Positions 36,761 through 63,281 of a DNA stretch of 64,000 nucleotides are shown here, in pieces. Every line of letters begins with the position of its first letter. The first letter of the stretch is position 1. The translations under genes were made by a program, and so were the position numbers. Source of the stretch: Planctomycetota bacterium (GTDB taxonomy: Bacteria > Planctomycetota > UBA8108 > JACQVS01). A model generated the notes under the pieces. The model worked only from the letters and a program-made list of their open reading frames with translations, was not told where the DNA came from and searched no databases. The stretch is from positions 74,274-138,273 of the forward strand of contig JACQVS010000106.1 of assembly GCA_016209605.1 (NCBI GenBank), written 5' to 3'.

Positions 36761-36788
36761 TTGAAAAAATATCAACCTGGAATATCAT
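36761..36788 (+). promoter_or_regulatory. Sigma-70-like promoter candidate for the FHA-GAF-HD-GYP gene
   Basis: TTGAAA (36761-36766), N16, TATCAT (36783-36788), in an A+T-rich spacer about 60 nt upstream of the ATG at 36850. Confidence 0.3.
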
Positions 36789-36849
36789 CATAAATTATAA
36801 ATCAGCTTCTGACTTGCAACTTTAAACATGGCGTTAGCAGAGGTGTTGG

Positions 36850-40819: not shown

Positions 40820-43800
40820 TTAAACCTTCTCCTTCTCGATCTCCTGGCTCTCATCCCGAGCCGCATCCTTGAGGTGCATGAAGGCCAGGGGCAGGAGGTT
40901 GGAAAAGAAATTGTAGTATACCAGATCTTCCGTCAGGCTGGCCTGCTGCGGAACCGGGTCGAGGATGTAGACCACGCCTTCATCCTGCAAACTCTGATAA
41001 GGGATGATCGCCAGGGAACGGTATCCCGCCTTGATCAGGTTGCCAAGATAGCCGACGCGCGAGTCCCGCACCAGGTCCGGAATGAACAGGGCGCTGCGGG
41101 TTTGCAGGGCGTTTTCAATCAGCTTGAGCGGGAAGAGCTGCGCCGACTGGTTGTCCTTGCGCTTGTCCAGATTCAAAGAAGCGCAAATCTGCAACCGTTT
41201 TTCCCGCCGGGCCAGGACGAAGGCCGCCTTGCCCTTCGAAGCGGTCAGGATGCGCTTCAGCATGAACTGCAGAAAGCTTTCCAGGCTTGCCGAGTTGCGC
41301 AGGGCCTGCATGAGCTCATTCATGTTTTCCAGAGTTCCGCCGACTGCTGGATGCTCGTGTGGGGCCCCCGCGCCCTGTCCGGTTGAACCCAACGCCAGGC
41401 GGTCGCCGACCAGCGGCGCCGGGGTGTGGCGGGCGATCGACTCCTTGGCCGCGGCACCTCCGCCCAGGTCGGGGACTTCCACGGCCGTGGCCAGCGAGTC
41501 CTTGAGCGCGAAGTGGATGCGGCGCTTCTGCCGGTAGCAATCGATGAACTCGGCGGGGATGCGCTCCAGGATCTCCCGCACCTCCTCCTCGGCCTTGCGG
41601 TACTCCTCCTTGGCTTGGTCGAGGCGCCGCGCTTTGACATGCAAATCGCCGATCTCCTGATGGATTTCCGCCAGCAGTTCAGGGTTTTCCGTCTTGGCGC
41701 AAATGGACAGGGCCTCGTTGAAGATGCCGATCAGCTTTTCAAGGTCCTTTTCGCCGGAGTCCCGCAGCACTCGCCCCTTCTCCATCAGGCAGCGAGCTTT
41801 CAAAGACTCGATGTCGAGCTCCACCGCATACCGGCAAGCCTCTTCGACCATGGAAGCCGCTTCCACATAGTTGCCCCGCAGGCGATGGATGGCGACGATT
41901 TCGAGGATCACCGTGCACAGCCCCCAGCGGTTGCCTTGCTTGGAGTAGGCGGTAAGCGCCCGGAACAAGTGGCTCTCGGCGCGGGAGTAGTCTTTCTTGT
42001 CGATCAGGATCCTGCCGAAGAGGATGTAGTTCTGGATATTGAGGAATCGCATCTTGTAGCCCCGGGAAAGCTGCAGGGAGTCGGCCACATGAGCCTCCGC
42101 CTGATCCAGCTTGCCAAGCTCGAAATAGAGCCAGGCGAGGTTGTGCAGGCCGACGGCTCGGCCGTAAGGATCGCCAATCTCCTCGCTGTTCTTCAAAGCC
42201 CGGCGGAAATGCTCCATGGCCTCGCTGTAATCCCCGCTGGCCATGAACGCGCGCCCCAGATTGTTCAGGCTGACGGAAATTTCAGGAATGTTCTCCAGGT
42301 TTTCCTGGATCTTCAAGCTGCGCTGGTGGAACTCCACCGCTTGCCGGAAGTTCCCCTTGTAGTAGTTGGCGCTGCCGATGGTCCGGAAGATCATGGCATG
42401 CTCCACTTTTTCAGTGGTGCCTTCGATGACGCGCAGGCCCTCAACCGAGATGGCCATGGCCTTCTCGTACTTCCCCATGCAGACGTAAACCCACCCAATG
42501 CAATTGAAGACGCGGATGCGCTCGTCGATGAGGTCCGGATCCTGGGAGTTGGCCAGATGGTCGCGCGCATCCTTGTAGCAGCGCAGCGCCGTGTCATAGT
42601 CCCCTTGAATTTCGAACACCTTTCCCTTGCTGCGGTAGTACCGGCTGATGGCCTCATTGGAAAGAGCATCCGGATTTTCGAAGTTGAGCAGGGCGTTGTA
42701 GCTTTGCTCCGCCATGTCGTACTTTCCCATGATGGTGCAAAGCTCGCCGATCTTCTCTTGAGTAGCCAGCCACAGGTCGGTCTTGGCCGCATCGCCTACG
42801 ATTTTTTCAACGATGTAGAGATAAAACTCGAGGGCCTTGTCATTGGCGTAGATCGCCTTCAGCCGGTCGCCCGCCTTCACGGCCAGCGACAGGGCCTGGT
42901 CGGTCAAGTCGCTGCGCTGGTAGTGGTATGCCAGGTCCTCCAGGATCTCCTCTTCGCGGCCGCGGTACAGATCGGCGAAGAACTCCCCCACCTCCCCATG
43001 GTACTTGCGGCGCTGCTCCTCCGGCAGGTCCGTGTAAAGGATTTCCCGCATCTTGGGCTGGTCGATCTGGAAGGTCAGCTTGCCCCCCTCGAAAACCTTG
43101 GTGATGAGGCCGGCCTCCTCGAGGTCCCGCAGGTGCGCCAGGATGGGGATGGAGACGAAACGCTTGAACTTCTGGAGCACCTTGGGGCTGATGGGGCGGT
43201 TGAGGACGCTCATCACGTCGAGAATTTCCTTCTTGACCGGCTCCAGCTTCTGGATGCGGCGGAGGAGCAGTTCCTCGAGATTGAGGGGGATCTCGACCCG
43301 GTTGTAGTTGGTGGTCTTGATCTGCCAGCCGTCATCGGTGTGCTTGAGGATCTCCTCGTCCTGGAGGGCCTTGAGAGTCTCCTGGATGAAGAGGGGATTG
43401 CCGCCGGTCTTCTCCTCCAGGCGGTCGAGGAACTGTGCCGGAATCTCGGTGAAGCCGAGCATGCTTTGGAGCAGCTCGACGATTTGCGACCGCTTCAAGC
43501 GCCGCAGCAGGACTTCCTGGCAGAAATTGAGCTCCTTGAACCGCGCCAGCACGTCTTTCAGTTCCTCCGAGACCTGCTCATCGATTCGCAAGCTCACCAC
43601 CACCATGACCTTCAAGGGTCCATCTTCCCGCGTGTGGCGGCCAATGCGATCTCCCAGGGCCATCAGCAACTCCACCGAGATCTCATCCGCCCAGTGGAGG
43701 TTGTTGATGAAGAGGACGTACGGTTTGATCGCCAGGACATCGAGGAGGAACTGGACAATTCGGTCGATGAAGAAATGCTTCTCCTTGTCCGGACGGTAGA

Positions 43801-45307
43801 CGGCGTCGCGCGAGGCCTGGTCGTCCAGGCCCCCCAGCTCCGGAAGCAGCTTCAACAGATCGCCCTGATACTTCTGGCAAAGCTCCGACTTGAGGCCGAG
43901 GCCGTAGACAATCTGGCGCAGGATCTCGATGAAAGGCTGGTAGGCGTTGGTGGTCCCCTCGTAGCAGTTGCCGGAATAGAGCTGGATATTGTTGAGCCGC
44001 AAGTAATGTTGGAACTCCTCGATCAGCCGGGATTTTCCGACCCCCATTTCGCCGCTCACCAGGACCATGAAGGGCGACTGGATTTTTTCGCTGTCCGGCG
44101 AGTCCGCGGCGGCATCGGGGCCGGCCGCGGCGCCGTCGGCCGGCTCATCCGCCTCCACAAAATCCAGGGCCCGACTGGAAGCCGGCTGGTTTGCAGCCTC
44201 GCCCGCCGGCGGCTTTTCCCCAGGCTTCTCTCCTGGCTTCTCGCCCGCCTTTTCCCCCGCCTTTTCGTCCGCGTTCGCCTTCAAGCGCTCCGGGCAGAAG
44301 ATCTGCTCGAACTGGCTGCGGAGGACGTGGATTTCCTTCTTGCGGCCCACCATGCGGTTCGAGTGGAGGTAGCTCATCTGCGTCTCCTTGGTCTCCACCT
44401 CGTAGTGGGTGCCGGAGTGCTTGCTGATGAACTGAATCACCTCCCGAGCGCTCTGAAACCTCTTCTCCGGATTCTCTTCGAGCAGCTTCAGCATCATCAC
44501 CCGGAGATACTCCGGATGCTTCTTCATGTGGAATTCGAACAGATCGGAGCGCTTGGCGGACTGCAAGGGATTCTGGTGCAGATCGTTTTCCTCGCACTGA
44601 TAGGGAAGAGCCCGGTTGGTGATTTGATAGAGCGTCACCCCCAGGGAGTAAAGGTCGGCGCGCTGGTCCGGGGTCTTGCCGCTGATGATCTCGGGGGCCA
44701 GGTAGTTGAGCGTGCCCTTGATGGCGAAGCTGAAGGAGCCGGTGATCTTCTCGGCCAGCCCGAAGTCGATCAGCTTGATGCTCGGCTTGGAGTAAACGGA
44801 TCGGTTCTTCTCCAGGAAGTCCTCATCGGTGTACTGGACCTTGGAGCCTTCCTTGAGGCCGAAGGTCTTGTGGCGCGTCACCAGGATGTTGTCCGGCTTG
44901 ATGTCGAAGTGGATGTACCCCCGCGAGTGGATGTACTCCAGCGCCCGGCAGGTCTGGACGATGATGTCGTTCAGCTCTTCGTAGTTGACGTACTCGGTGG
45001 CAGAGTAGAGGTCGATCCCCTTGATGAACTCCGAGACGATGAAGTAGTCGCCGGTGTTGCTGATCTTGCCGAAATTGTAGACCCGCGCCAGGTTCGGATG
45101 GCGCAGGCGAGTCAAGGCCTCGTACTCGCCCTTCGCCCAGACGTCCTGGTCATCGATGTTCTCCGAGATCAGAACCTTGAGCGCGACCTGGATGTTGTTC
45201 TCGACAATGTCCTCGCAGAGATAGACGCTCCCCATGGCGCCGGCACCCAGCTTGCGGACCACGCGGTAGCGGTTGTTGACAGTGTCGTTGGTTTTTAAAT
45301 CGAGCAT
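40820..45307 (-). CDS. 1495-aa Hanks-type Ser/Thr protein kinase - P-loop NTPase (STAND-like) - TPR array - C-terminal GAF
   Basis: Kinase: LGAGAMGSVYL, VALKVL, HFDIKPDNIL, DFGLA, APE. P-loop: VSGEMGVGKSRL. Many TPR units (...YYKGNFRQAVEFHQRSLKI...). The C-terminus is GAF-like (KAAFVLARREKRLQICASL...RSLAIIPY). Confidence 0.9.
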   Translation of the reverse strand: MLDLKTNDTVNNRYRVVRKLGAGAMGSVYLCEDIVENNIQVALKVLISENIDDQDVWAKGEYEALTRLRHPNLARVYNFGKISNTGDYFIVSEFIKGIDLYSATEYVNYEELNDIIVQTCRALEYIHSRGYIHFDIKPDNILVTRHKTFGLKEGSKVQYTDEDFLEKNRSVYSKPSIKLIDFGLAEKITGSFSFAIKGTLNYLAPEIISGKTPDQRADLYSLGVTLYQITNRALPYQCEENDLHQNPLQSAKRSDLFEFHMKKHPEYLRVMMLKLLEENPEKRFQSAREVIQFISKHSGTHYEVETKETQMSYLHSNRMVGRKKEIHVLRSQFEQIFCPERLKANADEKAGEKAGEKPGEKPGEKPPAGEAANQPASSRALDFVEADEPADGAAAGPDAAADSPDSEKIQSPFMVLVSGEMGVGKSRLIEEFQHYLRLNNIQLYSGNCYEGTTNAYQPFIEILRQIVYGLGLKSELCQKYQGDLLKLLPELGGLDDQASRDAVYRPDKEKHFFIDRIVQFLLDVLAIKPYVLFINNLHWADEISVELLMALGDRIGRHTREDGPLKVMVVVSLRIDEQVSEELKDVLARFKELNFCQEVLLRRLKRSQIVELLQSMLGFTEIPAQFLDRLEEKTGGNPLFIQETLKALQDEEILKHTDDGWQIKTTNYNRVEIPLNLEELLLRRIQKLEPVKKEILDVMSVLNRPISPKVLQKFKRFVSIPILAHLRDLEEAGLITKVFEGGKLTFQIDQPKMREILYTDLPEEQRRKYHGEVGEFFADLYRGREEEILEDLAYHYQRSDLTDQALSLAVKAGDRLKAIYANDKALEFYLYIVEKIVGDAAKTDLWLATQEKIGELCTIMGKYDMAEQSYNALLNFENPDALSNEAISRYYRSKGKVFEIQGDYDTALRCYKDARDHLANSQDPDLIDERIRVFNCIGWVYVCMGKYEKAMAISVEGLRVIEGTTEKVEHAMIFRTIGSANYYKGNFRQAVEFHQRSLKIQENLENIPEISVSLNNLGRAFMASGDYSEAMEHFRRALKNSEEIGDPYGRAVGLHNLAWLYFELGKLDQAEAHVADSLQLSRGYKMRFLNIQNYILFGRILIDKKDYSRAESHLFRALTAYSKQGNRWGLCTVILEIVAIHRLRGNYVEAASMVEEACRYAVELDIESLKARCLMEKGRVLRDSGEKDLEKLIGIFNEALSICAKTENPELLAEIHQEIGDLHVKARRLDQAKEEYRKAEEEVREILERIPAEFIDCYRQKRRIHFALKDSLATAVEVPDLGGGAAAKESIARHTPAPLVGDRLALGSTGQGAGAPHEHPAVGGTLENMNELMQALRNSASLESFLQFMLKRILTASKGKAAFVLARREKRLQICASLNLDKRKDNQSAQLFPLKLIENALQTRSALFIPDLVRDSRVGYLGNLIKAGYRSLAIIPYQSLQDEGVVYILDPVPQQASLTEDLVYYNFFSNLLPLAFMHLKDAARDESQEIEKEKV

Positions 45308-45497
45308 AAAGTAAGATCAGCCCGAGCGCTCTCGCTCGGAGATCCCCGAAGGAAGAAAAACATTTCGTCCCAAGAAGACTATATCGATGCGGATCTTGGA
45401 GCAAACCTGGGGGTGATAATGTTGAAGAAAACCGACAGGATGAGGCAGTCTTGAAAAGGATCCATGAACTGGACGCCCCAAAATAAGCTCGCCAGTC

Positions 45498-45535
45498 CCC
45501 GTGAAACAAGGCCACGAAGGCCTTGTTTCCACGGG
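45498..45535 (-). terminator. Stem-loop terminator candidate 8 nt downstream of the CotH-family gene
   Basis: cccgtgaaacaaggcc / ggccttgtttccacggg (16/17-bp stem with one bulge, 5-nt loop). On the sense strand a TTATTTTG run follows about 12 nt later. Confidence 0.5.
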
Positions 45536-45542
45536 TACCAAA

Positions 45543-48500
45543 TTAATTGGCACAAGGGGGATAATTGGCGCAGCCGAGGTCTTGTGGGGAGCCTGGCGAA
45601 TCGGGATCGGACCCGCAGGGCTCGCCCGGCGGACCGGGATCGGCCGGCGGCGTCCCCCCGAGGAACGTGAACTTCAAGATGGTGACGCCATCGGAGATGT
45701 CGAGGGCGCCATCATTATTGGCATCGGCGGCTTCCCTGCAGGCGGGGCCCGGATCGCCAAGAAAGAGATGCCGCAAGAGCACCACCGCATCGGTGACTTC
45801 CAGGGCGCCGCTCGAGTCCACATCCGCCCTATGGAAGAGGGGCGCTTCAACTCCTCCGGGCTGAGGCGGGATTTCAGGCCCGGAGATGGAATTGGGGCGG
45901 CCAGGGCTTCCCTGGCGAGCCGATGCCCCCCAGGACCCTGGCAAGCGGTTATCGCTCCGCGAGTCGATGAGCTCAAGGCTCGGCCCGCCCCCATCGGCCT
46001 CCTCTGGCCAGGGCGGATCATCCCCGTAAGCGACGCTGTCCATCAGCCGGCCGGCCTCATCCCACAAGGAGATGGTGTCGCCGCCGTTTGCAAGGAAAAA
46101 GGGCAGGTCCGTTCCGGCCACCTGGACGATGTTGTAATACTCGAAGACCGCCCGAGTGTTCCTCGAGAGAACGAGGAAGCCGTCAGGCTCAATGAGCGTT
46201 CCCTCTGGAAAAACATACTCCGCGGCGACGCTCGCGACCTTCAGCTTCCACCCGGAGAGATCCATGGTCCGGTGGAGGTTGTTCTTGAGCTCGATAAACT
46301 CGATGTCGTAGTACCGCGCCCGGTACATGATCTCGTTCACCACCACATCGCCCGGGACCGGAGGGCCGCTCTTCACATCCAACGCCAAGTACTCAAAGCC
46401 GTGGCGCCCGGGATCGGGCAGGAAGCCCTCGCGTCCTTTATCGTCGCGGGCGGAAAAGCAGTAAAAGAGCCGCGCCTCTTTGTGGAGAGGCGGGATGGCG
46501 ACCGCATAAAAATCGTGGATCCTGGAGTCGACCGCGGCCATATCCACGGCCGACTCCTCGCCGCCCTGAAGGAAGTGCAGCTTCACTGACACCAGGTTGC
46601 TGGGCCCGAGGTCATAAGTGCCATCGTAGCGGCTGCCGAGGGCGTTGGCGGTGAAGGTCAAGGCATCGCCGGGCCCGGCGGGCTGCGGCCCCACGGAGGC
46701 CTGGGAGAGAAGCGGCTCCCGGTCGAGGAACTCGGCCAGATATTTCCTCCGGCTGCTGACATAGACTTTGTCGAAGCGGGCATGGAAAGAAAAGCCCTTC
46801 CAGTTCCAGCTCGTGTCAAGCGCGTTCCACTTGTCGACGTCCATTTGCGCCTCCTCGCCATCGGTCTTCTGGATGCGGTCGATGACCGGCTGGATCTCCG
46901 TCTCCGTGAAGTAAGTGACCAGGGCTTCGGCCAGGGTGTCCTTGAGCTGGTCCCTGAACTCCGGAACGCCAAGGTAAGCGCTTCGCAGGGCGCTGACCAT
47001 GAACTCTTGAGGCTCCGGGTTGAGCGTCGAGCCATCGTAGGGGTGGAGGTTGTGGCCCTGGGCGGGCGGCGGCTTGCGGCGGCTGTAGCCCCACGTGATG
47101 TCCATGTCCCAGGGGAAGCGCACCCAGCGGTTGCCGTTGAGCTCATCCTGGTAGAAATAGTAGTTCTGCGAGGTGCTGTCCCAGTGGGTCGAAAGGATGA
47201 TGGCGGCGAGGTAGCGGCGGTAAAGCTCCAGATGGACGTTGTTTTCCAGGAATCCCTTGGTGCCCGTGCCTCCGCCCTCCGAGAGCGAGACGATGTATTC
47301 CACCCGGTGCCACTCCCCGACCTGCCAGCGGAACTGGCCCGACTCGTTGATCCAGCGGATGCCGGCGTTGACGAGATGCAGCCCTTCGCTGCTCGAGTTC
47401 AAGTAACGCAAGGATGGGCAGAGGGTGCCGCTGAAGGCGTGGCCCGGCGGATCCCCCAAGAATAGCCCCGCTCCGGCCCAGTTGTCCCCGGTCTTCTGGC
47501 TGGTGATGCGGACATCGTAGGTGACGGTGATGGGCCGTTTGGAAAAATCGATGATGCCGGGCCGGGCAAGGCGGTGGTGAGAAGCTCTCAGAGGGGAGAC
47601 GAGGCGGATGGCGCCGCCGGCTTCCCAGGTCCCCTCGACTCCGGTCCAATCGTCAATGGCCTCCCCGTTTTCAACCAGCAGGTTGCAGGAATTGGGAGCG
47701 CTGCTTTGGTCGGCGATGCAGATCCCATCGAACTCCGCCAGGCAATTGTAAGCGATCAGGCCGATCGAGGCCCGCTTGGTGTTGAACTCGCTGAGCCCGA
47801 GCTGGGTGAAGGTCGGAAGAGCCGGCCGGACCCCGCCGTCCCGCTTCCAGATCCGGCCGGCGACCATCATCGTCCCCGGGGTGTCCGACGACGAGCCGGC
47901 CAGCCCTTCGACGAAGTTCCGGATGCTGGAGTAATCGGCGCGGTCGTTGCTTTGCTTCTCATAAGCGCTGGAGTAAGAGGGGACCGGGTAGTTGTGAGCG
48001 GAGGCCGTGCGGCCATGCTTGTAGAGGTCGCCGAGCCCGGTGAAGCCGTTTCGCTCCAAGAAAGTCTCATCGATCGCCTCCACCTCCACATGCCAGCCGA
48101 AAAAGCTGTCATTGACCATCAGGCGGATGAAGCGCGTTCTGGAGGAGGGAACGCCGGCGCGGTCGAAGGTCAGATAGCAAAGCTTGTCCTTCAAGCCGTT
48201 GTCGCCCCGCTGGTAGGGATCATCCCAGTGCATGTTCCCCTGAATGACCAGGACCTCGCGCCCCTGGTAGCGGTCCCAGTCGGGAAACTCCAGGCGCCAG
48301 GAGTACTTCAGCCGTCCGGCGTGCCGGCTGGCGAAGCCGCCGCGGTGGCGGATGGCCACCTTGCGGTGCACCCGGCCATCGAGGACGGCGAAACCTGGAA
48401 AGGCGTCATCGAAATGAGGGTAGCGCGGGTCTCCCGGGCTCCGGATCTGGGCATTGTCATCGAGGATCTTGAGTTTTTCCGGGGAAAGGAAGATCAAGAT

Positions 48501-52500: not shown

Positions 52501-53128
52501 GAGGGGGGAGGACGCAGTTTTCGGCGAGGACTTCGCCGGCAGCCTCGTAGATCTCGATCTCGTCAATGGCGGTGCCGAGGCCCAGGCCGGTTCCCGGGAC
52601 GATCAAGCGGATGCCGGTCGCCGCCACCGGGGAGAAGTTGAAGCGGTGCCGGAGCCAAGGGGAGGGGGGGCACAATCCATCGTAGAAGACTTCGCCGATG
52701 GTGACCCAGTCCGGGTTTGGAGTCGCCGCGCCCGGCGAGGGCGCCTGAGTGTACTGCAGCACGTAACGGCCCTGATTGCGGTCGGTGTACTCCAGGGCCT
52801 CGCCGCCGTTATCGCGGCCGAAGGCGATGCTGGCGATGGTGAAGCTCCCCCCCAGGCTGAGGCCGGCAAAGCCGGGATTGCCGGTATTGCCGATCCAACT
52901 GTTGGTGTTGCCATAAATCCCATCGTTCAAGCGCTCGATCCGGTGGACATCAAAGCCGATGTCGGCGAGCGCATCGATGGCAAAGGGAACGGCTTGGGGG
53001 CCGGTGGCGAGATTGTTGGGACCGAAGGCACCGCCCACCTCGACCAGAGCCAGTTGCGCCTCGAGGCGGGCAGATGCCAAGGACGCTAGCAGAATTGAAA
53101 AAGCTAACGGTTTGAGCAGCGGCTGCAT
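49448..53128 (-). CDS. Secreted giant repeat protein A: six ~170-180-aa discoidin-like modules (order I-I-II-II-I-II) + dockerin-like/Cys-tail
   Basis: I place the start at ATG 53128 (GAAGGAG RBS; MQPLLKPLAFSILLASLASARLEAQ). Each module carries HLNDG(I/L/F)YGN.NSW(I/L)G and ...FGRDN.... C-terminal FRRGDVESNGEINATDAI...LDADGDGNINQTDAI...ECGS...SCESFPCP. Confidence 0.8.
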   Translation of the reverse strand: MQPLLKPLAFSILLASLASARLEAQLALVEVGGAFGPNNLATGPQAVPFAIDALADIGFDVHRIERLNDGIYGNTNSWIGNTGNPGFAGLSLGGSFTIASIAFGRDNGGEALEYTDRNQGRYVLQYTQAPSPGAATPNPDWVTIGEVFYDGLCPPSPWLRHRFNFSPVAATGIRLIVPGTGLGLGTAIDEIEIYEAAGEVLAENCVLPPLADLQLVEEGGEFAADNLAAGPGAAAFAPDSLAGFETIHNIPHLNDGIYGNSNSWIGQTGLFVGINFGGRFPIASIAFGRDNGGEAQVYTDRSGGRYILQFTTADNPDHLTPNASWTAIGQVVYGGGLCPEKPYLRHRFNFAPVEATGVRLTVPAAGLGDGTAIDELEVYGIPGEDRDPCPFFPDLELIEKGGSVNPPISPGDVSTLAEGNLARAADAVAFGTPPYPDPAHTIPHLNDGLYGNPNSWLGNEEGLSSRRVYAGIYFTGGAKTIEEIALGRDNLNQYADRAAGAHLIEYTQDEFDFTDDAQVAAATWQVLGRARAHLEEAPPNLRRRYRLPAPVSARAVRVVTALGNALDELELGKIVVNRGSAFPPLQLLQTGGPGATPAAPGDVPGAEAGNLARAADARAFGSPTADPHKIDALADGLYGDASGWLGEQPAGGLSLVYAGVFFQDRPRAVNRIALGRDNTGQASERAEGPYILQVTESLIDFTLPGLIETARWTAVGQAEGHLGAAGPGLRRLYRLDLVQARAVRIITRQGNALDEIELYLDTSELGEELKLVELSGSLEPAKDLAVRPEATAFAIDSLAGFDFHITAHLNDGLYGNTNSWIGESGNPGFAGINLRGLFTIRSIAFGRDNGGEAQEYTDRNQGLYILQVATVPDAGAATPASEWKSVGYANYAGAFPPDGLPWLRHRFNFNAVEATAVRILVPAVGLGEGTAIDELEVYEEAGEVVEPPPGLKTLALLEVGGPFSTPALPFDVPLFANGNLALAADAVAFGTPTLDLPQHSIPHLNDGFYGNDNSWLGAEAGPVSGKIYAGIYFTGGPRAVGEIALGRDNLGNLFDRAGGLHIVEYAAEEFDHASDQAVAAVNWKPLGAAKDHLSGNDFPNLRRRYGFNQVQARAIRVVTQLQNVFDEIELYAGKPDGNLFRRGDVESNGEINATDAILILLYAFLGGSPGTCLEALDADGDGNINQTDAIIDLYFAFLGGAPPAAPFPECGSVEVLKFSCESFPCP

Positions 53129-53168
53129 GGCTTCTCCTTCATGATCTAGGGCCGTGGTTCTTGAAAAA

Positions 53169-56100: not shown

Positions 56101-56297
56101 TTCAAGTTGACGATGAAGTGAACCCCGAAATCGAGCTGGTCGATGGCGAAGGCCGCGGCGCCGGCCTCCCGGGCCAGATTGCCGGCATCGAAAGCACCTC
56201 CCACCTCCGCGAGCTCAATTTGCCCCGCAAGCCGGGGTGAAACCAAGACGATAAGGAAAAACAACAGGGAACATGAACTCATCCAACCCTTTCGCAT
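53169..56297 (-). CDS. Secreted giant repeat protein B, a paralogue of A: five modules (I-II-II-I-II) + divergent dockerin-like/Cys-tail
   Basis: I place the start at ATG 56297 (GGAGGT RBS; MRKGWMSSCSLLFFLIVLVSPRLAGQ). Same two module subtypes as A. C-terminal GDCNQDGRRDVTDIV...LDLDGNNQVDIPEIL...GCLLVPEIARCGGNVGCP. Confidence 0.8.
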   Translation of the reverse strand: MRKGWMSSCSLLFFLIVLVSPRLAGQIELAEVGGAFDAGNLAREAGAAAFAIDQLDFGVHFIVNLNDGIYGNTNSWIGLTGSPGIAGISLGGLKTVASLAFGRDNGGEEQTFMDRTAGRYVLQYTQVASPSAATPDSDWTAIGELNYNCVFPDSTPWLRHRYNFPPIEATGVRLLVPATGLPAGTAIDEIEIYAASGAVTATPPPTLLAPLATGGPLTTPALAGDVPALADGNLARGADAIAFGTPPFPAPAHTIPHLNDGLYGNSNSWLGIEPGAASGKVYAGIYFNDGLKDLAQIAFGRDNLGAFGDRIDGIYTIQYTQDAFDPSNDAAVDAAAWTAIGFAALCTTPSPLRRLYSFSQVSARAVRILTVLGNVIDELELGMQIGAPPPPVLPLVETGGPVTTPALPTDVPSLALRNVARAPDAVAFGTPPFPHPAHTIPHLNDGFYGNSNSWLGNEPGPASGKVYAGIYFTDGVRRIRNLALGRDNTGTFGDRAVGTYLVQFTLDEFDPASDAATDAANWRTVGEATAHLSDGLAAFRHVYCLGGIQARAVRVLTALGNVIDELELLDPVVGEIVLSEVGGTFDAKNLSTAGALAFAIDALADIGFDNHRIEHLNDGLYGNTNSWIGNTGNPGIAGIAFGGPGTVVSIAFGRDNGGEAQTFTDRATGLYILQYTTASAPGATTPDCDWITIGQIDVNSFCPPSSFLRHRYNFPAVEATGIRLIVPATGLAAGTAIDELEAYNYPGAGSLECVVPVPLELVQTGGPLATPAAAGDVPTFEDGNAARAPDAVAFGTPPFPHPAHTIPHLNDGLYGNSNSWLGNEPGPTSQKVYAGVYFSGGPRQIHGIALGRDNLSQFLDRAAGPYLVQYTLDTFDPAADGATDAANWIPVGLAQAHLTDGMAHLRHRYRFDLLSARAIRVLTEGQNAIDEIELFEPRYQLAGDCNQDGRRDVTDIVCILRLKFRGFFILDRSGVDSPCGGDDLTSPGNLMVLDLDGNNQVDIPEILFLARHLFTGGPPPVQGAGCLLVPEIARCGGNVGCP

Positions 56298-56385
56298 ATT
56301 TACCTCCAAAGACCCAACCACTAGGGATTTTAGAAAAAAATCGTCTAACCTGAAATCACATCATGGACTGGTTTTGACAGACACT

Positions 56386-59172
56386 TTATATCCCGTCCGA
56401 CTGCGAAGGTCGAACGATCGTAGCCGGACGATCGAGCCGATACTGGTAGTCAGGCCACAGCGGACAGTTGAGATCGATCCAGCACTTGACGCGGTGCGTT
56501 TCATCGCGGCTGAGCTGGACATCGTGGTGGCCCGCATCGAGGAGGTGCCACAGCCTGCTGCGGACGGTGCCGAACGTGAGCGGCTCGGCTTTCGCGTGCT
56601 CGCGGCCCCACGTCATGTCGAAGTAGTGCACCCAGCCTTTGGAGATCAACGTGCGATACGAAGCGGGCACACGATGGGCGTCGAGCGCGCCGCTCAGGTC
56701 GATGCCGTTCTTGTATGCTGCATCGTGGCAGCTGACACAGCGAGCATCCCATACCGGTTGCACGACCTTTTCATAGGAGAACGGTTCCGCGCCCCACGAA
56801 GGCGGCTCCAATCCGCGTGGCGCGTGCCGCAGCGCGAGCGTCGCGTGGTTGGACGCGGCAGAAGAGCGCTGCTCGTGACAGCCGATGCAGCTCCGCCGTT
56901 CGCCTGGTTGCAATTGAACGACGCTGCGCATCCGTTGTATCTCGTTCAGATTCTCGTCCAGTAGCTGAAAAAACAGCACCTTGCCGGCCGGCGCGTGGAA
57001 ACTGACCGAGCCGTCCTCTTCGACCGGCACGATGCCGAGCGATGCCTTCGCAACGTAACCGGGCCAACCGTGCGGGCCGTTCACCAGGTGGATCGGGGTC
57101 GCGTAGTAGTCTTGAAACGGCGGGTGGTCGCTCTGGTACTCGCCGCTCGGCAGCCGCACTAGATCGGCTCGCACTTCCTGGCACACACGGAGGTATTTGA
57201 TGGCGCCGCGCTTCACGACCGGTTCCAGCCCGTGGTAGATGTCCTGGACAATGAACTGGCCCAGTTCGGCTCCGGCGGACTCCGCCTGGGCCTCAGGGAG
57301 CACCGGCGGCGCCGGCATCGGCCGCAGCGGCGCCGGCGACATGCTGCCAATCGATGGGTCGAGATACAGGAGCTCGCGGTTCCCGAACCGGTCGATCACG
57401 TACAGCCCGAACCGGTCCCGCGGGGCATGGCTGACGAGGAAATAATCGCGGGCGATCGGGACCGGGTCGCGAAAGCACTCTTTCTGGGCCCAGCTCATGT
57501 GGTAGTGCGGCCGCACGTCCGGCGTGATGTTCGTGATGGCCTTCGAGTTGAACCGGCCCTGGTTTGGGTCGATCAGCGCGATGGGTCCGTTCAGGTCGCC
57601 GCCGTGGGAGATCAACGTGCAGCACAGTTCGCTCGTGCCCGGCACTTCACGGCCGTTGACGTAGCAGTTGAGCGTGTTGTTGCCGAACAGCAGTTCGGGG
57701 TGTGTGCCGTCGGGCCGAATAGCCCAGAGCGTGTGGCCGAAGTCGGCCCCTTTGTCGAGGTACTCCGACCGCGTCCAGAGGATGCGGCCGTCGCGCATGA
57801 CGGACGGCGCCCATTCGCTCAGGTTCGCGTACGACAGCGGCCGGATGTTCTCACCGTCGGCGTCCATGCGGAACAGCACGAACGCCTGCGGCCGCCAACA
57901 CAGAAACCGAGCCTTGCAACGCGTCGAGATGAACGCGACGCCACCGTCCGGGAGCGGGCATGGATAGTAGTCGTGAAACGGGCCGTCGGTGAGCTGCCGC
58001 AGGCTTCCCCCGTTGGCGTCGGCCACCATGACGTGGAAGTAGTCTTTTTCCGACGGCCGGTAGCCGAAGTAGACGCGCGTCGCGTCAAACGTGGCCATCG
58101 GATCGCGGGCCACGCCGCCTCCCGCATCGAACAGTTGCGAGAGCTTCGCCTCGCTCGGCTCGAACCGGCCGTTTCGTCGCGGTATGTCCAACACGACAAT
58201 CCCGCCGCCCGGCCGGTATTTCGCATCGAGGATGTCGCTGTAGTTGTGCGACGGCTCGTACGGATGCCGCTTCACGAACAGGATGCTCGAGATCGCCGCC
58301 AGATCGGGATCGCGCCAGAAGAGTTGCCGCTTGGCCAGGCGGACGTCGAAGTACAGAGCCACATCATATTCGGCATCTCGCGCCGGCGCCGCGGCCGCCT
58401 GCCGGCGCCGCAACTCGGCCAACTGGTTCCGTTCGGCCAAGACGTCGAGCCCCTTCGCCGCCAGTCGGTCGAGCATCGTCTCGAACTGCCGCAGCACGCG
58501 GGTCACGGGATCCGATGGATCAACACGCGACCACGTCGCTTGCTCGCAGAGAAACGCGTACCGAAGCAGCCCGTCCCAGGTGACCGGCTCCGGCAGCGGG
58601 GCGCCGGTTCCGATTTTCCGGACCGTCTTCCACGTCTTCCCGTCGAGCGAGGTCTGGATTTCAAACTCAACCGGAACGCGGTCCGCAAAGCGCCCCTCGC
58701 GGTCGCGTGAGAAAACGACCCGAGCCACTTCAGCCGGCTGCGGCAGCTCGATCTGGGCCCATTCTCCCGACGTGCCCGCGGCAATCCAACTGTGGTTGTT
58801 CCCATACAGCCCATCGTTCAGGTGGGCAATCTGGTGGATCGCATAGCCGGGCAAGCACGACGACGCGCTCGCCAGCGCGCCGCTTGCCGGCGCAGCGAGA
58901 TTTCGTCCGCCACCCGGCCCGAAGATTTCCAGCTCATCGATGCACGGCTCGCTCTGCGAGCTTTCCAGGACCACGAACCGGATGAAGCGGGCCTGCGTGG
59001 GTGGAAACGTGAGCACGTTTTGCTTGTCGGCCGAGATCGCAAGCGGCAGGCCCTCACCCGCCGCTGCCTCCGCCGGCTGCCAAACATCCAGTCCGGCAAG
59101 CCCGGCGATGGTCGCTGCCGCTGCCGCCAAGCCAAGCAACATCCGTCCTCGAGCACCGGTCTTCGCGTTCAT
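56386..59172 (-). CDS. Secreted protein: two discoidin-like modules + beta-propeller-like region + C-terminal domain with two CXXCH motifs
   Basis: I place the start at ATG 59172 (MNAKTGARGRMLLGLAAAAATIAGLAG). The second module shares the HLNDGLYGNNHSWIA motif with proteins A and B. CIGCH is encoded near 56876-56890 and CVSCH near 56722-56739. The overall make-up resembles planctomycete proteins annotated as hydrazine-synthase-alpha-like. This is tentative. Confidence 0.75.
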   Translation of the reverse strand: MNAKTGARGRMLLGLAAAAATIAGLAGLDVWQPAEAAAGEGLPLAISADKQNVLTFPPTQARFIRFVVLESSQSEPCIDELEIFGPGGGRNLAAPASGALASASSCLPGYAIHQIAHLNDGLYGNNHSWIAAGTSGEWAQIELPQPAEVARVVFSRDREGRFADRVPVEFEIQTSLDGKTWKTVRKIGTGAPLPEPVTWDGLLRYAFLCEQATWSRVDPSDPVTRVLRQFETMLDRLAAKGLDVLAERNQLAELRRRQAAAAPARDAEYDVALYFDVRLAKRQLFWRDPDLAAISSILFVKRHPYEPSHNYSDILDAKYRPGGGIVVLDIPRRNGRFEPSEAKLSQLFDAGGGVARDPMATFDATRVYFGYRPSEKDYFHVMVADANGGSLRQLTDGPFHDYYPCPLPDGGVAFISTRCKARFLCWRPQAFVLFRMDADGENIRPLSYANLSEWAPSVMRDGRILWTRSEYLDKGADFGHTLWAIRPDGTHPELLFGNNTLNCYVNGREVPGTSELCCTLISHGGDLNGPIALIDPNQGRFNSKAITNITPDVRPHYHMSWAQKECFRDPVPIARDYFLVSHAPRDRFGLYVIDRFGNRELLYLDPSIGSMSPAPLRPMPAPPVLPEAQAESAGAELGQFIVQDIYHGLEPVVKRGAIKYLRVCQEVRADLVRLPSGEYQSDHPPFQDYYATPIHLVNGPHGWPGYVAKASLGIVPVEEDGSVSFHAPAGKVLFFQLLDENLNEIQRMRSVVQLQPGERRSCIGCHEQRSSAASNHATLALRHAPRGLEPPSWGAEPFSYEKVVQPVWDARCVSCHDAAYKNGIDLSGALDAHRVPASYRTLISKGWVHYFDMTWGREHAKAEPLTFGTVRSRLWHLLDAGHHDVQLSRDETHRVKCWIDLNCPLWPDYQYRLDRPATIVRPSQSDGI

Positions 59173-59238
59173 GAGAGGTCGCCTCGCGCACAAATTCCAC
59201 CCCGAAGCACCCAAAAAGGTTGAAAAACGAATAAATGG

Positions 59239-59268
59239 ATTATGCCCCATCCCCATGAGACCCGTCAA
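59239..59268 (-). promoter_or_regulatory. Sigma-70-like promoter candidate for the discoidin/CXXCH gene and downstream exoprotein genes
   Basis: The minus strand reads TTGACG (59268-59263), N18, CATAAT (59244-59239), about 65 nt upstream of the ATG at 59172. Confidence 0.3.
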
Positions 59269-59294
59269 CAGGCACGCCGCTTCGAACTGAAATT

Positions 59295-62249
59295 TTATTT
59301 ATTCTTCTTCAAGAGCTCGATCCGCGCCCGCGCCCAGGTGGGATCGAGCGGGCCGGTAAGGCGCAGATCCTCGAGGGCGCACTGCGGGTCCAGGCGCACG
59401 GCGATCCGCCCGAAGGGGCCGGGCGAGGCGGCGAGCGGGGCCTCCACGGCCACCCGCCCCGCCAGCTCCACCCGGACCCCGATGCCGCGAAACTCGATCC
59501 GGAAGGCGCCCGGCGGGCCGCTTCCATCCGATGCGTAAAAAGCCCTCTCGCCGCCGCTCCCCTCTTCAAAGACCGAGAAACCGGCCGCCGCGGCCGCCCC
59601 CAGGCCGATGCAGAGCCGGTCGAAGGCGAAGATCAGCCGCCCCTTGCGGCCGCGGGCTTTCGAAGGCTTGGCGGGCGCCGCCGGGGCGGACCAGCTCCCT
59701 TCCACCGTGACCGGCAGGCGGAAGATCGCCACCGTGTCCAGGGCCTCGTTCAAGTCGTTGCCTGAATGGAGCAGGCGCCCCTCCTGAACCGCCCAGCGCC
59801 TGGGGTGGAAGCGGAAGTCGCTCAATTCCGCGCTCGACTCGAAGGGATAATCGAGCCGGATGGCGGCGGAGGCGAGCGGCTCCGCCGCGGCCGCTCTTCC
59901 CGCGAAAAACCGGGTGGTGATCCATAAAAGATCGCGGGCTCGGTCACGCCGCTCCGCCCAGACCTCCGGATCGCGCCGCAGGGATGGCGGCAAGCGAGCG
60001 CCGCCGAGCAAATCCTCGTATGCCTGGAAAGCCTCCTCCCAGCGCCCGGCCGAGAGGACCTTGGCGGCCTCGCGCGCTTGCGCCGCCGCTTCCAAAGCCT
60101 CCTCGAAGGCGCCCCTCGCTCCGGGCGGATCGCCCCCCTCGGCAGGAGGGGCCGCCGGCGCGCTCAAGAGAGCGCGGACCTCCCCCGGCACCTCCTCCGG
60201 AAAGGCGGTGAAGATCCTCTGCGCCAGGTCGAGGCGGCGGTGCGCCAGGGCCCAACCGGCCCCCTGGCTCGCGAGCCGGGAGTCTTCGCCGGAGAGGGCC
60301 CCCCACGCCAGCACCGTCACGGGATGGAGGTCCGCGATCGCGAAACGCTTTCCAGTCCCGGCCTCGATCAGGGAAACCCCCTCGAAATCACGCTCGACCT
60401 GAACGGACACGGGGCCGCGCTCGCCGCCGGCCCTCAAGAAGACCTCGAGCCGCCGGCCGGTTCCCAGATCCTTGAGACGTGAGGAGAGCCGCCCCCATAC
60501 TTCCTTCTCCGCCCCCTGAACCCATTCCGATCCGGCCGCTGAAAGCTGGCCCAGGGAAAACTGGATCAGCGCGGCTGCCTCGGGAGGAAGCGGTCCCTGA
60601 ATGTTCTCGAGCGGAAAGAACGACCCGAGCCGCGGCAGCGCCCTGGCCAGAGCGGTCCAGGCCCCGGCCAGCAGGGCTCGCGCGGAGTCCCGGCCACGCC
60701 CCGACATTGCGGCCAGAGCCTGCCGCACCGGGTCGGGATCGAGCCCGGGCGGCCGCGCCAAGGCCGAGGAGGCCTCGCCGCTTCCGGCCGGCCGCGCTGC
60801 CTTCGGACTCGCCGCCGACGGCGCTTCCGGAAGGTCGGGCAGCGGCCGCGCCGGCTTGAAGAGCAGCAGCCCCGCCCCCAGAGCCAATGCCAGCCCCAGG
60901 CCCGCGGCCGCAAAGAGCCCGTCCCGAAAGTCGCTCCGAGGCCCGCGACCACCCGGCTTGCGCCGGGCGGTGCCCGGCGAGAAGGCGCCAGACAAGGCGG
61001 GCCGACGTAGCCTTATTAACCGGAGAAATAAGGCGAGGAGGCCCAACGCCGTATGGCGCCTTCGCAGCCGGCCCCAGTTCTGTTGCAGAGTGGCCGGATG
61101 GATTTTTGGGACGGGCTCTGACCACTGCCGGCGGGCTCGGAGCGGCGGCGCCGGCGCACGCACTGCCGCCGGCCCCGGTGCCGGAGGGCCTTCCCCGGCG
61201 ATCCTCTTATCGCCGCCCGCCAGCGTCTTCAACGCGTAGACCAGCTCCCTAGCCGAAGCGGGGCGATCCTCGGGATTTTTTCGGAGGAGGCGCAGGAGCA
61301 GCGCTTCCATGGGGGGAGGGATCTCCGGTTTCAGCCGGCTGGGCGGCAGAGGCTCCTCTTCGAGGTGGGAGCGGGCGATCTCCTGCGGCGGGCCTTGATC
61401 GAAAGGGGGGCGGCCGGTGAGAGCGTGATACCACGTCGCCCCCAGCGAGTAGAGGTCGCTGCGCGCGGCCAACTCCCCGCGCCTCGCCTCGCCGCGGATC
61501 TGCTCGGGGGACATGTACTGCGGCGTTCCGAATACCAGGCCGTCTGGCGTGCCGCATTCCGGGGCCTGCCGGTCCTCCCCGGTCCAGAAAAGCCCCAGGT
61601 CGGCGAGCTTCACGGCGCCATCGGGAGCGAGCAGGATGTTGGCCGGCTTGACATCGCGGTGGACCAGCCCGGCGGCGTGAATGGCTTCCAGGCCGCGGGC
61701 GACGGGGATCAGCACCTCGAGGGACTCGAGCGGCGCCAAGGGCCCCTTCCTATTGAGCAGCTCTTGCAAGTTCTCGCCCGGAACCATCTCCATGGCGATG
61801 TAGTAAAAAAGGCCGTCCCGGCCCGCATCGTAAGCCTGAACGACGTTGGGATGGTTGATCCGGGCGAGGACCTGCGCCTCCCGCAGGAAACGCTCCGCCA
61901 GCCCCGACTCCTTTTCAAGCCTGGGAAAGAGGACCTTGATGGCGACGCGGCGGCCGAGGCGCCGGTGCCGGCCTTCGAAGACCATGCCGGTCCCGCCCGC
62001 GCCGATGCGCCGCACGATCACGTAATCGCCGATGCGGGCCTGCCGGGTGAAGCGGCTGAGCAAACGCCGTAGCACCCGCAGCCGTTCCTCGTCCAACTGT
62101 TTTGATTCCCGGAAGAGGTCTTCGACCGTCTTCTCGACCCCCAGGGCTTCCAGCTCCTCGACTCGCTGGAGGACCTGCTGGTAAACCGCGGGCGAGATCC
62201 AGCCTCGCGACAAGGCCAGGCGGGCGAACAGGGCGTTGGCGGCATCCAT
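59295..62249 (-). CDS. Transmembrane Hanks-type Ser/Thr kinase with a large extracytoplasmic C-terminal region (possible concanavalin/LamG-like end)
   Basis: Kinase: [39 protein letters not shown]: [21 protein letters not shown]. About 480 aa lie outside the membrane. I use ATG 62249; the ORF-track start at 62315 is a TTG forming a TTGA overlap with the upstream stop. Confidence 0.85.
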
Positions 62250-62311
62250 GGCGTCAGGGCGACCGCGCCCGCCAGGCTGGACCCGCGGGCGGCCAGCCCG
62301 GCTCCGGCCGG

Positions 62312-62797
62312 TCAAAGATTGAGGGGGCTTTCCTTTTTGAGTTCCGTGAGCTGGTTTTGAATTTCCTCGAGTCGTTGCCTCGAGCGCTGCTCGAGAACCC
62401 TGGCGTCGGCGGGGAGGCCGGGATTCTTGCGGACGTGCAGCAAGATCTCCTCGTAGCCCGCCCTGCTCCTTTCCAGGCTGTACTTGGCCCAGCGGGCCCA
62501 GTCGATGCGGGTGAGGGAGCTTCCCTCGGCTCGCCAGCGCTTGAGGTAAAAGAGGGCGCTGTCTTCATAGACGGTGTTGGCGAGCCGAAAGATCTCCTCC
62601 ACATCCTGAAGGGTGATGGGGACGCTCGCCACCTGCGGCTTCTCGGCGAACTCCGGCTCCACCGAGGGATTGAGCGGGTAGCCGATGCTGGCCAGGATGA
62701 TGACCATCCCAACGGGAATCAGGACGGCGAGGAGGAGCCCCGCCAAGAGGTCGGCCACATCGATTTCCCCCCGCTGGCCTCGGCGCCGGCAACGCAT
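62312..62797 (-). CDS. Small single-pass membrane protein (161 aa), unknown function
   Basis: N-terminal TM (LLAGLLLAVLIPVGMVIILASIG) and a helical soluble part. The ATG lies 1 nt after the upstream stop (TGAcATG). No family recognised. Confidence 0.5.
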   Translation of the reverse strand: MRCRRRGQRGEIDVADLLAGLLLAVLIPVGMVIILASIGYPLNPSVEPEFAEKPQVASVPITLQDVEEIFRLANTVYEDSALFYLKRWRAEGSSLTRIDWARWAKYSLERSRAGYEEILLHVRKNPGLPADARVLEQRSRQRLEEIQNQLTELKKESPLNL

Positions 62798-62798
62798 G

Positions 62799-63281
62799 TC
62801 AAAATTCCATCCTCTTGATCAGATCGAGGCGCAGCTGGCCGGCGCGGGCCTTGTAATCCGAGTATCCGCGCAGGTCTTCCCGCAGCTCCCCATCCGCCGT
62901 GCGAAAAGGGCCGAGGACTTTTTCAAAATCATCCAGCCAGGCCTCCCATTTGCCGACCATGGCCTTGGCCTGAGTCTTGAACTGCGGTTTCTCCGGCTCG
63001 ATGGCCATGACTTTTTGATGCTCGGTCTGAAGCTGCTGAAAGCGCTTGTTGATTAAGCCGTCGATGTCAAGGTTGGGGTCCAGGCTCGCCGACGTGCCGG
63101 CCTGCTCGCTTTCGGAGGAGCGAGTCTTGACGAGGCGGTAGACCGAAAGCGCCGCGATGCAGACCAGGGGAATCATGATCAGCGAGAAGGTGACCGGCGA
63201 CATCTTGCCGGCAGGCCGGCGGTTCGGGGCGGAAGCGGGACGCCCTCTCGATCCCAGTTTCCGGGGAGGGTTTGGAGGCAT
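62799..63281 (-). CDS. Small single-pass membrane protein (160 aa, or 134 aa from ATG 63203), unknown function
   Basis: TM (VTFSLIMIPLVCIAALSVYRLV) followed by a charged helical region. First gene after the manA-like gene. Confidence 0.5.
   Translation of the reverse strand: MPPNPPRKLGSRGRPASAPNRRPAGKMSPVTFSLIMIPLVCIAALSVYRLVKTRSSESEQAGTSASLDPNLDIDGLINKRFQQLQTEHQKVMAIEPEKPQFKTQAKAMVGKWEAWLDDFEKVLGPFRTADGELREDLRGYSDYKARAGQLRLDLIKRMEF

Follow-up and report, generated by a model that had tools for sequence, protein, structure and literature searches.

Gene content and organization of the locus

The window analyzed here is the whole of a 64,000-nucleotide stretch of DNA from a Planctomycetota bacterium (assembly GCA_016209605.1, contig JACQVS010000106.1, positions 74,274 to 138,273 of the forward strand). 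Between positions 40820 and 63281 of the window lie eight large genes, called G1 to G8 here (Table 1), rather than the nine counted in a previous sequence-only reading, which had correctly placed all of them on the minus strand. They code for two small membrane proteins and two Ser/Thr kinases (G1, G2, G3 and G8), a dihaem protein (G4), two repeat proteins (B and A) with signal peptides (G5 and G6) and a protein with a CotH domain (G7), and it had been proposed that they form a single surface system. A comparison of gene neighbourhoods shows that the cassette G1-G2-G3-G8, the trio G5-G6-G7 and G4 are conserved apart from each other and that, among the loci compared, the set as a whole is not conserved beyond this genome. 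The locus is probably a composite of separately conserved units and not one system. Gene content, conservation patterns and folds are reported as returned by the tools used, and from these we infer all functions, including export to the surface.

The spacers within the locus are short or absent, as had been noted before. G2 and G3 overlap by 4 nt, G6 and G7 share a GTGA stop/start overlap if the database GTG start of G7 (1302 aa) is taken, and the spacers between G5 and G6 and between G4 and G5 measure 40 and 88 nt, respectively. The hairpin 3' of the G7 stop, previously described as a terminator, is a strong fold that none of 200 shuffled sequences (0/200) equalled, although it has no adjacent U-run and was missed by a consensus terminator scan; it is likely the transcription stop of the block G4 to G7, which we regard as inserted. 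The consensus scan for promoters and terminators gave overall site totals equal to chance, with three promoter sites against 1.9 expected, and the promoter-like site at the G3/G4 junction alone is not significant. The G+C content of third codon positions (GC3) is 0.74-0.84 and uniform over all genes. Neither composition nor GC3 gave a signal of foreign origin, and the uniform GC3 indicates that the rearrangement does not consist of recent foreign DNA.

Table 1. Features of the locus and of the neighbouring part of the window (positions are those of the window).
Feature	Position	Strand	Description
G1	62799-63281	-	160 aa, small single-pass membrane protein
G2	62312-62797	-	161 aa, small single-pass membrane protein
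G3	59295-62315	-	transmembrane Hanks-type Ser/Thr kinase
Promoter-like site, G3/G4 junction	59239-59268	-	TTGACG-18-CATAAT, 10/12 matches; weak
G4	56386-59268	-	putatively secreted, hydrazine-synthase-alpha-like dihaem protein, N-terminal discoidin domain
G5 (repeat protein B)	53169-56297	-	signal peptide, five discoidin-like modules, C-terminal tag
G6 (repeat protein A)	49448-53128	-	signal peptide, six discoidin-like modules, C-terminal tag
G7	45543-49502	-	LTD, split CotH domain, LTD, C-terminal tag
Hairpin 3' of G7 stop	~45494-45539	-	-35.8 kcal/mol, z = -4.3
G8	40820-45307	-	cytoplasmic Ser/Thr kinase, AAA_16 NTPase, TPR, GAF-like C-terminus
motA	39778-40623	-	Pfam
motB	38946-39740	-	Pfam
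fliL	38365-38949	-	Pfam
FHA-GAF-HD_5 gene	36850-38361	+	Pfam; convergent with fliL
ABC ATPase	35984-36709	+	Pfam
FtsX-type permease	34537-35991	+	Pfam
S8 subtilase with dockerin-plus-cysteine tag	25884-29156	+	Peptidase_S8 and tag profile; outside the range of the sequence-only reading

The signalling cassette

G1 and G2 each contain a single hydrophobic helix (residues 30-48 and 17-35, respectively) and match no Pfam or NCBIfam family. G3 carries a Pkinase domain at residues 98-356 (Pfam, 165 bits) with the kinase motifs VAIK124, HRD219 and DLG239, a transmembrane helix at residues 467-485 and an outside region of about 520 aa without a family match. The two small membrane proteins and the transmembrane kinase with a large outside region are thus as originally described. 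G8 had been read as a kinase-NTPase-TPR-GAF protein. Its Pkinase, AAA_16 and TPR regions are recognized by Pfam, the kinase motifs being VALK41, HFD133 (non-RD) and DFG181, but no GAF domain was found by Pfam even at E <= 1; when the C-termini of ten G8 proteins were compared by hhalign with the Pfam-confirmed GAF domains of six FHA proteins, however, they matched with 95% probability (E = 3.8e-8, 128 columns). At the same permissive threshold, Pfam returned nothing usable for G1, G2, the outside region of G3, the C-terminus of G8 or the insert in G7 that is described below.

Full-length orthologues of G3, including P0242 (42% identity), were found elsewhere. The loci of P0242, P0248 and P0247 have the order G1, G2, G3, G8, with the two kinase genes 136-264 nt apart, followed by a convergent FHA-GAF-HD_5 gene. 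An alignment-based scan with G8 added 14 further metagenome loci at 50-78% identity, and the cassette comparison comprises these 17 other loci. The counterparts in L050 and L052 are 64-68% identical to G8 over its full length of 1495 aa. Directly before G8, the 14 further loci have G3 (seven loci) or G1-G2 without G3 (four), the upstream DNA being too short in three; altogether, G3 or G1-G2 directly precedes G8 in 14/17 other loci, and G3 is directly upstream in ten. G1 has homologues ahead of the kinase genes in L050, L052, L055, L057-59, L063-65 and L079, and those of G2 follow G1 in L050, L053, L054, L057-59 and L063-65; G2 was not detected in L052 or L079. A search of genome contigs with G8 returned a TPR-only match alone. 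Since the contiguous order is seen in near (64-68%) and far (50-55%) relatives, it represents the older state. No homologue of G4 to G7, motA, motB or fliL was found in any of the 17 other cassette loci.

The partner gene downstream of G8 is conserved as well. Orthologues of the FHA-GAF-HD_5 protein (530-750 bits) are encoded convergently downstream of G8 in L050, L052, L056, L057 and L061, while in L079 only the end of the FHA gene is on the locus (117 bits). The motA-motB-fliL genes and the convergent FHA-GAF gene lie as the sequence-only reading had them, and the FHA protein of the window matches the HD_5 profile with 82.9 bits, but its description as HD-GYP-like needs qualification. The HD signature reads LYDIG, whereas two orthologues keep HD (LHDIG), and GYP is changed to GSP in the window protein and in the four orthologues in which this motif could be located. 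The signatures of an HD-GYP phosphodiesterase are accordingly not intact in the window protein, and its HD_5 domain, to judge from these motifs, may be a non-catalytic or atypical domain of the cyclic di-GMP (c-di-GMP) type. The FtsX/ABC pair follows the FHA gene also in L050 and L052, and in L057 an FtsX-type gene is found further downstream; the window keeps this far flank of the cassette as FtsX-ABC-FHA (34537-38361).

On the other side of the cassette, flgM is found upstream in 9/9 loci with enough DNA (L052, L053, L055, L057, L058, L059, L063, L065 and L079), and Pfam FlgM is recorded for the copies in L052 and L079. No flgM was found in the window, whose end lies 700 nt upstream of G1. 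The window does hold a flagellar cluster (5957-22129, minus strand) with flgE, fliK, fliI, fliH, fliG and fliF, about 16 kb from motA-motB-fliL; after fliF follow genes for a sigma-54 activator response regulator (19521-21026) and a histidine kinase (21023-22129), both on the minus strand. Because flgM lies upstream of the cassette and flagellar genes lie in the window, the kinase/FHA cassette is plausibly a motility-control module.

Several further observations concern the flgM side. The region with flgM upstream of the cassette spans positions 7892-9829 in L052 and 8097-9949 in L079. A protein of 190-266 aa is encoded after flgM in five loci (L052, L053, L059, L079 and L080); its copy in L052 has a weak STAS_2 match (18 bits), and a weakly STAS-like gene is often found between flgM and G1. 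The order TPR-peptidase_MA, CarboxypepD_reg, flgM is shared by L052, L055, L057 and L079.

Unlike in the 17 other cassette loci, the gap between G8 and the FHA gene is occupied here by motA-motB-fliL. The same joint holds unrelated genes in L079 (a sulfatase and a Na+/H+ exchanger) and an unknown gene of about 500 aa in L056 and L057. The genes in the G8/FHA gap of L055-L057 have no Pfam match and hence are silent on a functional theme.

Taken together, sequence comparison identifies G1-G2-(G3)-G8 and the FHA-GAF-HD protein as a conserved signalling cassette. No protein of the locus reached a curated NCBIfam cut-off, which includes all those of the cassette, and the cassette is conserved and uncharacterised. 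In the literature on the combination of kinase, FHA protein and flgM, we found no description of a flgM-linked cassette, only a general paper on planctomycete kinases. Of the relay from Ser/Thr kinases through an FHA reader to the motor that had been proposed, the conserved partnership and its position next to flgM hold, but not the tie to the exoproteins or to the stator.

The repeat proteins, G7 and their shared tag

The repeat proteins B and A (G5 and G6) are built of modules of about 180-190 residues, arranged as I-II-II-I-II and I-I-II-II-I-II, respectively, in agreement with the two subtypes recognized earlier. The module signature is HLNDGxYGNxNSW ... GRDN ... DE[IL]E. No Pfam model covers the modules, and F5_F8_type_C gave no match to them in G5 or G6. 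An AlphaFold (AF2) model of a type I plus type II module pair, with a predicted local distance difference test (pLDDT) score of 83.8, gave 226 PDB matches at E <= 1e-3 in Foldseek, the top ones being the tandem CBM32 of ZmpB, neuropilin b1b2, the C domains of factor V/VIII and F-lectin. According to this model, the modules are discoidin/CBM32-like beta-sandwiches. A profile built of the eleven modules and the discoidin domain of G4 matched 1,199 representative proteins at E <= 1e-10 among 1.84 billion, and most of these carry 2-11 copies each. By sequence, the G5/G6 modules are thus a separate subfamily with about 1,200 representative proteins at this threshold. The relatives bear varied anchors, namely dockerin, PEP-CTERM, TSP3 and autotransporter-type repeats. 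We put it at slightly less than an even chance that A and B are adhesin-like binders.

In the public annotation, G5 (1011 aa) begins at a GTG that lies within the first module, and the signal peptide is thereby lost (56180-56321, minus strand). The ATG at 56297, which is preceded by a GGAGG Shine-Dalgarno sequence, gives a normal signal peptide.

G7 matches the CotH family (PF08757) with 125.3 bits (cut-off 23.8), the match being divided in two by an insert, and LTD with 124 bits; with the dockerin-like tail, these matches bear out the LTD-CotH-dockerin architecture read from the sequence. In a phmmer alignment to Bacillus cereus CotH (5JD9), HWD(775)S pairs with NFDG and PWD(799)MD with PWDYD. 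The positions of D775 and D799 are invariant in four CotH-LTD proteins, and we take these residues to be the catalytic D228 and D251 of the B. cereus structure. The insert of about 200 aa within CotH (residues ~540-750; 47250-47890, minus strand) is kept in the 60%-identical orthologue but not in two other CotH-LTD proteins, and is not recognized by Pfam even at E <= 1; its sequence looks jelly-roll or lectin-like.

All three proteins end in a shared tag, which consists of two DxNxDGxxDxxD loops with LFLGG helices, followed by PGPxxxCGxDPxxxGSxxDLGCxxYxxC. Pfam recognizes Dockerin_1 in G6 (29.9 bits, cut-off 22.9). A tag profile built from other loci only, with no window sequences, found G7 (E = 7e-41), G6 (E = 2.9e-22) and, weakly, the divergent tag of G5 (E = 1.2e-5; 17.7 bits in Pfam), in support of the shared docking unit that had been postulated. 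The loop motif occurs twice in the tags of G6 and G7, whereas in G5 it is matched by the first repeat but degenerate (DLDGNNQVD) in the second. An AF2 model of the G7 tag (pLDDT 93.8) superimposed on about 30 chains of cohesin-bound dockerins with template modelling (TM) scores of 0.7-0.8 over about 60 residues and a root-mean-square deviation of about 2 Å, the cysteine tail being extra. The tag thus models as a dockerin fold.

The tag is not confined to the locus. An S8 subtilase encoded elsewhere in the window matches the tag profile at residues 90-179 of its open frame (E = 2.4e-24), which makes the tag a general device in this organism. Tagged proteins seen comprise discoidin arrays, CotH-LTD proteins, the S8 protease and LTD or PKD proteins. 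Pfam scans of about 35 proteins of the window, which did not take in its smaller open reading frames or the remainder of the genome, gave no cohesin, and none appears among the Pfam matches of genes neighbouring the related loci. Likewise, Pfam found no glycoside hydrolase (GH), polysaccharide lyase (PL) or carbohydrate esterase (CE) domains in G4 to G7.

The S8 subtilase bears the tag right after its signal peptide, that is, at the mature N-terminus and not at the C-terminus. It is flanked by genes for two large proteins of 1100 and 1369 aa (22507-25809 and 29259-33368, both minus strand), which are essentially without a family match.

Conservation of the exoprotein trio

Orthologues of G7 with 57-60% identity are present in L041-43, L045, L046 and L077, and in these loci a tagged gene ends less than 150 nt upstream of the G7 orthologue or overlaps it. 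Three of these upstream genes clearly encode module proteins. The nearest relatives of G5 and G6 are encoded on the same strand as an LTD-CotH-LTD-dockerin gene and immediately ahead of it. L041-43 show a B-like gene, an A-like gene with a 4-nt overlap and then a CotH gene whose product is 60% identical to G7, and L045 has P0010 followed by P0127; orthologues of G6 lie directly upstream of CotH in L041 and L045. A partial module protein overlaps P0126 in L046, where a dockerin-tagged M14 peptidase is encoded beside CotH, and a gene ending in the tag overlaps P0123 by 4 nt in L077. In L040, the CotH encoded after the module protein P0002 is from another subfamily.

The components also occur fused. 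The metagenome-assembled genome (MAG) of a member of the Pirellulales encodes one 2357-aa protein with a G5/G6-type module, six LTD matches and CotH (Pfam; L036, 8876-15946), and a single large frame in L035 (1651-7377) has similarity to module, LTD and CotH. To judge from their sequences, these fusions link the components of the trio in one protein.

An exception to the usual order is L078 (MAG GCA_035544655.1), which has B-like and A-like genes followed by a PSCyt1/PSCyt2/PSD1 haem protein (5144-7933) with an inserted discoidin domain 46% identical to residues 84-216 of G4; the CotH orthologue of the same MAG is on another short contig.

None of the trio loci contains G1 to G3, G8 or stator genes, and the one kinase gene seen, in L041, is a truncated fragment that lies 4 kb off in divergent orientation. 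Sequence comparison therefore identifies B, A and the LTD-CotH-LTD protein as a conserved, tightly coupled and uncharacterised trio that occurs on at least four unrelated metagenome contigs without the kinases. The earlier suggestion that the binding proteins and CotH belong together is strengthened by the recurrence of this order on independent contigs. Searches of genome and metagenome contigs with G7 alone, or with G7 aligned to its L041 relative, returned no orthologues and one 30% match (L044), and G6 found only single-module relatives in genome contigs, two of them being the module-LTD-CotH fusions of L035 and L036. The literature on CotH in bacteria of the Planctomycetes-Verrucomicrobia-Chlamydiae (PVC) group yielded nothing relevant, and no description of a discoidin-array/CotH trio was found there.

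Two distant LTD-CotH-LTD-dockerin proteins (L047 and L048) were considered as members of the trio and rejected, as no module protein is encoded beside them. The B-like gene of L045 is split into four short frames (5209-7199) on a long-read contig of 5x coverage, which reflects either sequencing frameshifts or a decaying gene.

G4, an independent haem protein

Pfam finds F5_F8_type_C (44.8 bits, cut-off 28.2) and an HZS_alpha middle domain in G4, and two CXXCH motifs are present at residues 794 and 844, as expected from its description as a discoidin/propeller/CXXCH protein. A weak match to PDB 5C2V_A (32.6 bits) extends across the propeller, middle and haem regions. By sequence, G4 has the layout of hydrazine synthase alpha (propeller, HZS_alpha middle domain, two CXXCH) and yet is not the enzyme: an assignment as hydrazine synthase was rejected, the NCBIfam equivalog scoring 53 bits against a cut-off of 800 in addition to the low score with 5C2V_A. 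The N-terminal domain shares part of the signature of the G5/G6 modules, in that HLNDG and RD align while DELE lies upstream of the aligned stretch.

Relatives of G4 with 50-75% identity were found in 34 loci (L001-L034), in MAGs labelled Verrucomicrobiota, Planctomycetota, Lentisphaerae, Hydrogenedentota and Fimbriimonadaceae. A few MAG labels read Bifidobacterium, probably wrongly. The spread over five phylum labels reflects either unusual conservation or frequent transfer. Within up to 10 kb on each side, the neighbours of these genes are mostly their own paralogues, often two to four in tandem. Module proteins, the trio and the cassette were found in 0/34 of these loci; one CotH-LTD gene (L010) and, about 7 kb away, one unrelated Ser/Thr kinase (L014) are the only genes of a related kind. 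Sequence and neighbourhood thus point to G4 as an independent gene family, here a passenger that shares only the discoidin domain with the trio. The protein encoded in L078 is a second haem protein with a G4-type discoidin domain adjoining repeat proteins.

Origin of the locus

The proposal that all genes form one apparatus, in which dockerin-assembled binders and CotH report through G3, G8 and the FHA protein to the stator, can point to the co-directional genes and short spacers, to the linkage of the kinase cassette with flagellar genes (flgM in nine loci, motAB-fliL and the flagellar cluster in the window) and to the large outside region of G3, which could sense the state of the surface. 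However, G4 to G7 are absent from all 17 other cassette loci (0/17), the cassette occurs in none of the trio loci, and neither trio nor cassette accompanies G4 elsewhere (0/34). Moreover, Ser/Thr kinases, including those with TPR arrays, are abundant in Planctomycetota (PMC11032199), and because of these large numbers a chance adjacency to other genes is likely to be common. We therefore regard a single apparatus as quite unlikely.

The composite origin that we consider probable would have started from an ancestral cassette G1-G2-G3-G8 that was contiguous, lay just downstream of flgM and was followed by the convergent FHA gene and the ABC/FtsX pair. A 14-kb block, G4 to G7, beginning at the promoter-like site and ending at the strong hairpin, would then have been inserted between G3 and G8 in this lineage; the kinases would appear to bracket the exoproteins because the block sits between them in this lineage only. 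The genes motA-motB-fliL would be a second interruption, between G8 and the FHA gene. Within the cassette, G1, G2 and G3 would sense outside or envelope signals at the membrane, G3 and G8 would phosphorylate targets on Ser/Thr, the FHA domain would read phosphothreonine, and the GAF/HD_5 part would provide an output towards flagellar or motility control. The trio proteins would be exported via their signal peptides and anchored to the cell surface, or linked to one another, by the putatively calcium-binding dockerin tag. The arrays of A and B might then act as multivalent lectin-like binders of a glycan ligand, with CotH modifying A and B or their ligand by analogy to Bacillus coat assembly.

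Several points weigh against a composite origin. With a best G8 match of 68% identity, the comparison includes no close relative, which leaves the insertion undated, and the same arrangement may exist in another genome. The uniform GC3 provides no independent sign of an insertion, and the promoter-like site at the G3/G4 junction is not statistically significant. The orientation of the inserted genes, which is that of the cassette, and their tight spacing would allow a common transcript with G1 to G3. Two insertions with a motility or adhesion flavour in one cassette may be no coincidence, and the haem protein with a G4-type domain after the B/A pair of L078 suggests that G4 is perhaps no pure passenger. 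In addition, no cohesin partner for the tag turned up in the Pfam scans of the window proteins and of the neighbours at related loci, and the assembly was taken as given.

An alternative is regulon capture, in which units of separate origin are brought together and the block and the stator are recruited into a motility-regulating kinase operon, giving a local swim-or-stick switch. Both insertions are in the orientation of the cassette and at intergenic joints, their themes, surface binding and the stator, would suit a decision between motility and adhesion, and the cassette partner is a c-di-GMP-type HD_5 protein. Yet the arrangement is known from one genome only, the hairpin closes the inserted block, and the G8/FHA joint seems simply permissive, given the sulfatase and Na+/H+ exchanger in L079 and the unknown gene in L056 and L057. 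Regulon capture therefore appears unlikely. The more specific idea that the trio and the stator are wired into the flgM-linked kinase/FHA/HD-GYP-like cassette as a swim-or-stick switch, in which CotH, with its lectin-like insert, might phosphorylate a surface glycan or the partner arrays instead of a classical protein substrate, is speculative and rather improbable.

The window derives from a metagenomic contig of 138,761 bp, and an exact look-up of the G5 product found no identical second copy; a misjoining of different genomes could have produced the apparent bracketing. Such an artefact would need two chimeric insertions at exact intergenic joints and in the same orientation, with the cassette correct on both sides. 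It also fits poorly with the uniform GC3 and with the gene overlaps (GTGA between G6 and G7, 4 nt between G2 and G3), and we consider it very improbable.

Comparison with known systems

Proteins with a similar combination of domains are listed for the cellulosome of Clostridium thermocellum, namely CseP/Cthe_0044 (CotH and dockerin) and Cthe_0239 (LTD, LTD, Fn3, CotH and dockerin), for which no function is given (PMC6083626). Like these, G7 joins a secreted CotH, lamin-tail domains and a dockerin. In contrast to the cellulosome, neither a cohesin scaffold nor carbohydrate-active enzymes were seen here, and the partners are poly-discoidin proteins. The tag also has an extra cysteine-rich tail, the CotH of G7 has an insert of about 200 aa, and the host is a PVC-type diderm and not a Firmicute.

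The "planctosome" of freshwater Planctomycetes (Andrei et al., 2019, PMC6461901), with these cellulosomal proteins the nearest precedent, is a hypothetical surface complex based on cohesins and dockerins, with an LTD anchor protein and dockerin-tagged peptidases. Our locus shares with it the planctomycete-type context, dockerin-tagged exoproteins, LTD proteins and a tagged peptidase nearby (S8 in the window, M14 in L046). However, the cohesin-bearing anchor and adaptor proteins of the planctosome were not found among the genes scanned by Pfam, and the planctosome, itself a prediction, has neither CotH nor discoidin-array proteins.

The CotH domain of G7 belongs to the same Pfam family as the spore-coat kinase CotH of Bacillus (5JD9/5JDA) and keeps both aligned aspartates. 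A comparable role, the phosphorylation of structural partners while a surface layer is being assembled, is conceivable by analogy. The two proteins differ in that only about 170 residues align (29 bits) and G7 is a secreted multidomain protein of 1300 aa. Moreover, the coat substrates of CotH in Bacillus carry Ser-rich stretches, whereas none were seen on reading the sequences of A and B.

The modules of G5 and G6 have the same fold as CBM32-1/2 of Clostridium perfringens ZmpB (7JNF) and neuropilin b1b2, which are also arranged in tandem, and this likeness suggests that the tandem discoidin arrays bind a glycan or another ligand by avidity. Unlike in the ZmpB and neuropilin arrays, the modules form two alternating subtypes with a signature of their own, and the sequence identity is only about 10-16%.

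The cassette resembles pairs of a Hanks kinase and an FHA effector, in that genes for a membrane-bound and a cytoplasmic kinase lie together with that of a conserved FHA partner. It differs from general kinase-FHA pairs by the fusion of FHA to GAF and a degenerate HD-GYP domain, by two extra small membrane proteins, by a STAND-like kinase and by the constant vicinity of flgM.

Implications

Our comparison removes a false lead, since the picture of exoproteins bracketed by two kinases beside the stator genes reflects a split cassette and not a new integrated apparatus; the link between exoproteins, kinases and motor rests on one genome. What it leaves are two conserved units of interest in their own right. 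With the trio, the role of secreted bacterial CotH kinases and the binding partners of non-cellulosomal dockerins can be addressed in a well-defined context. The cassette, with its G8 50-78% identical over 17 loci, is a candidate route by which Ser/Thr phosphorylation could feed into the control of flagella in uncultured Planctomycetota-like bacteria.

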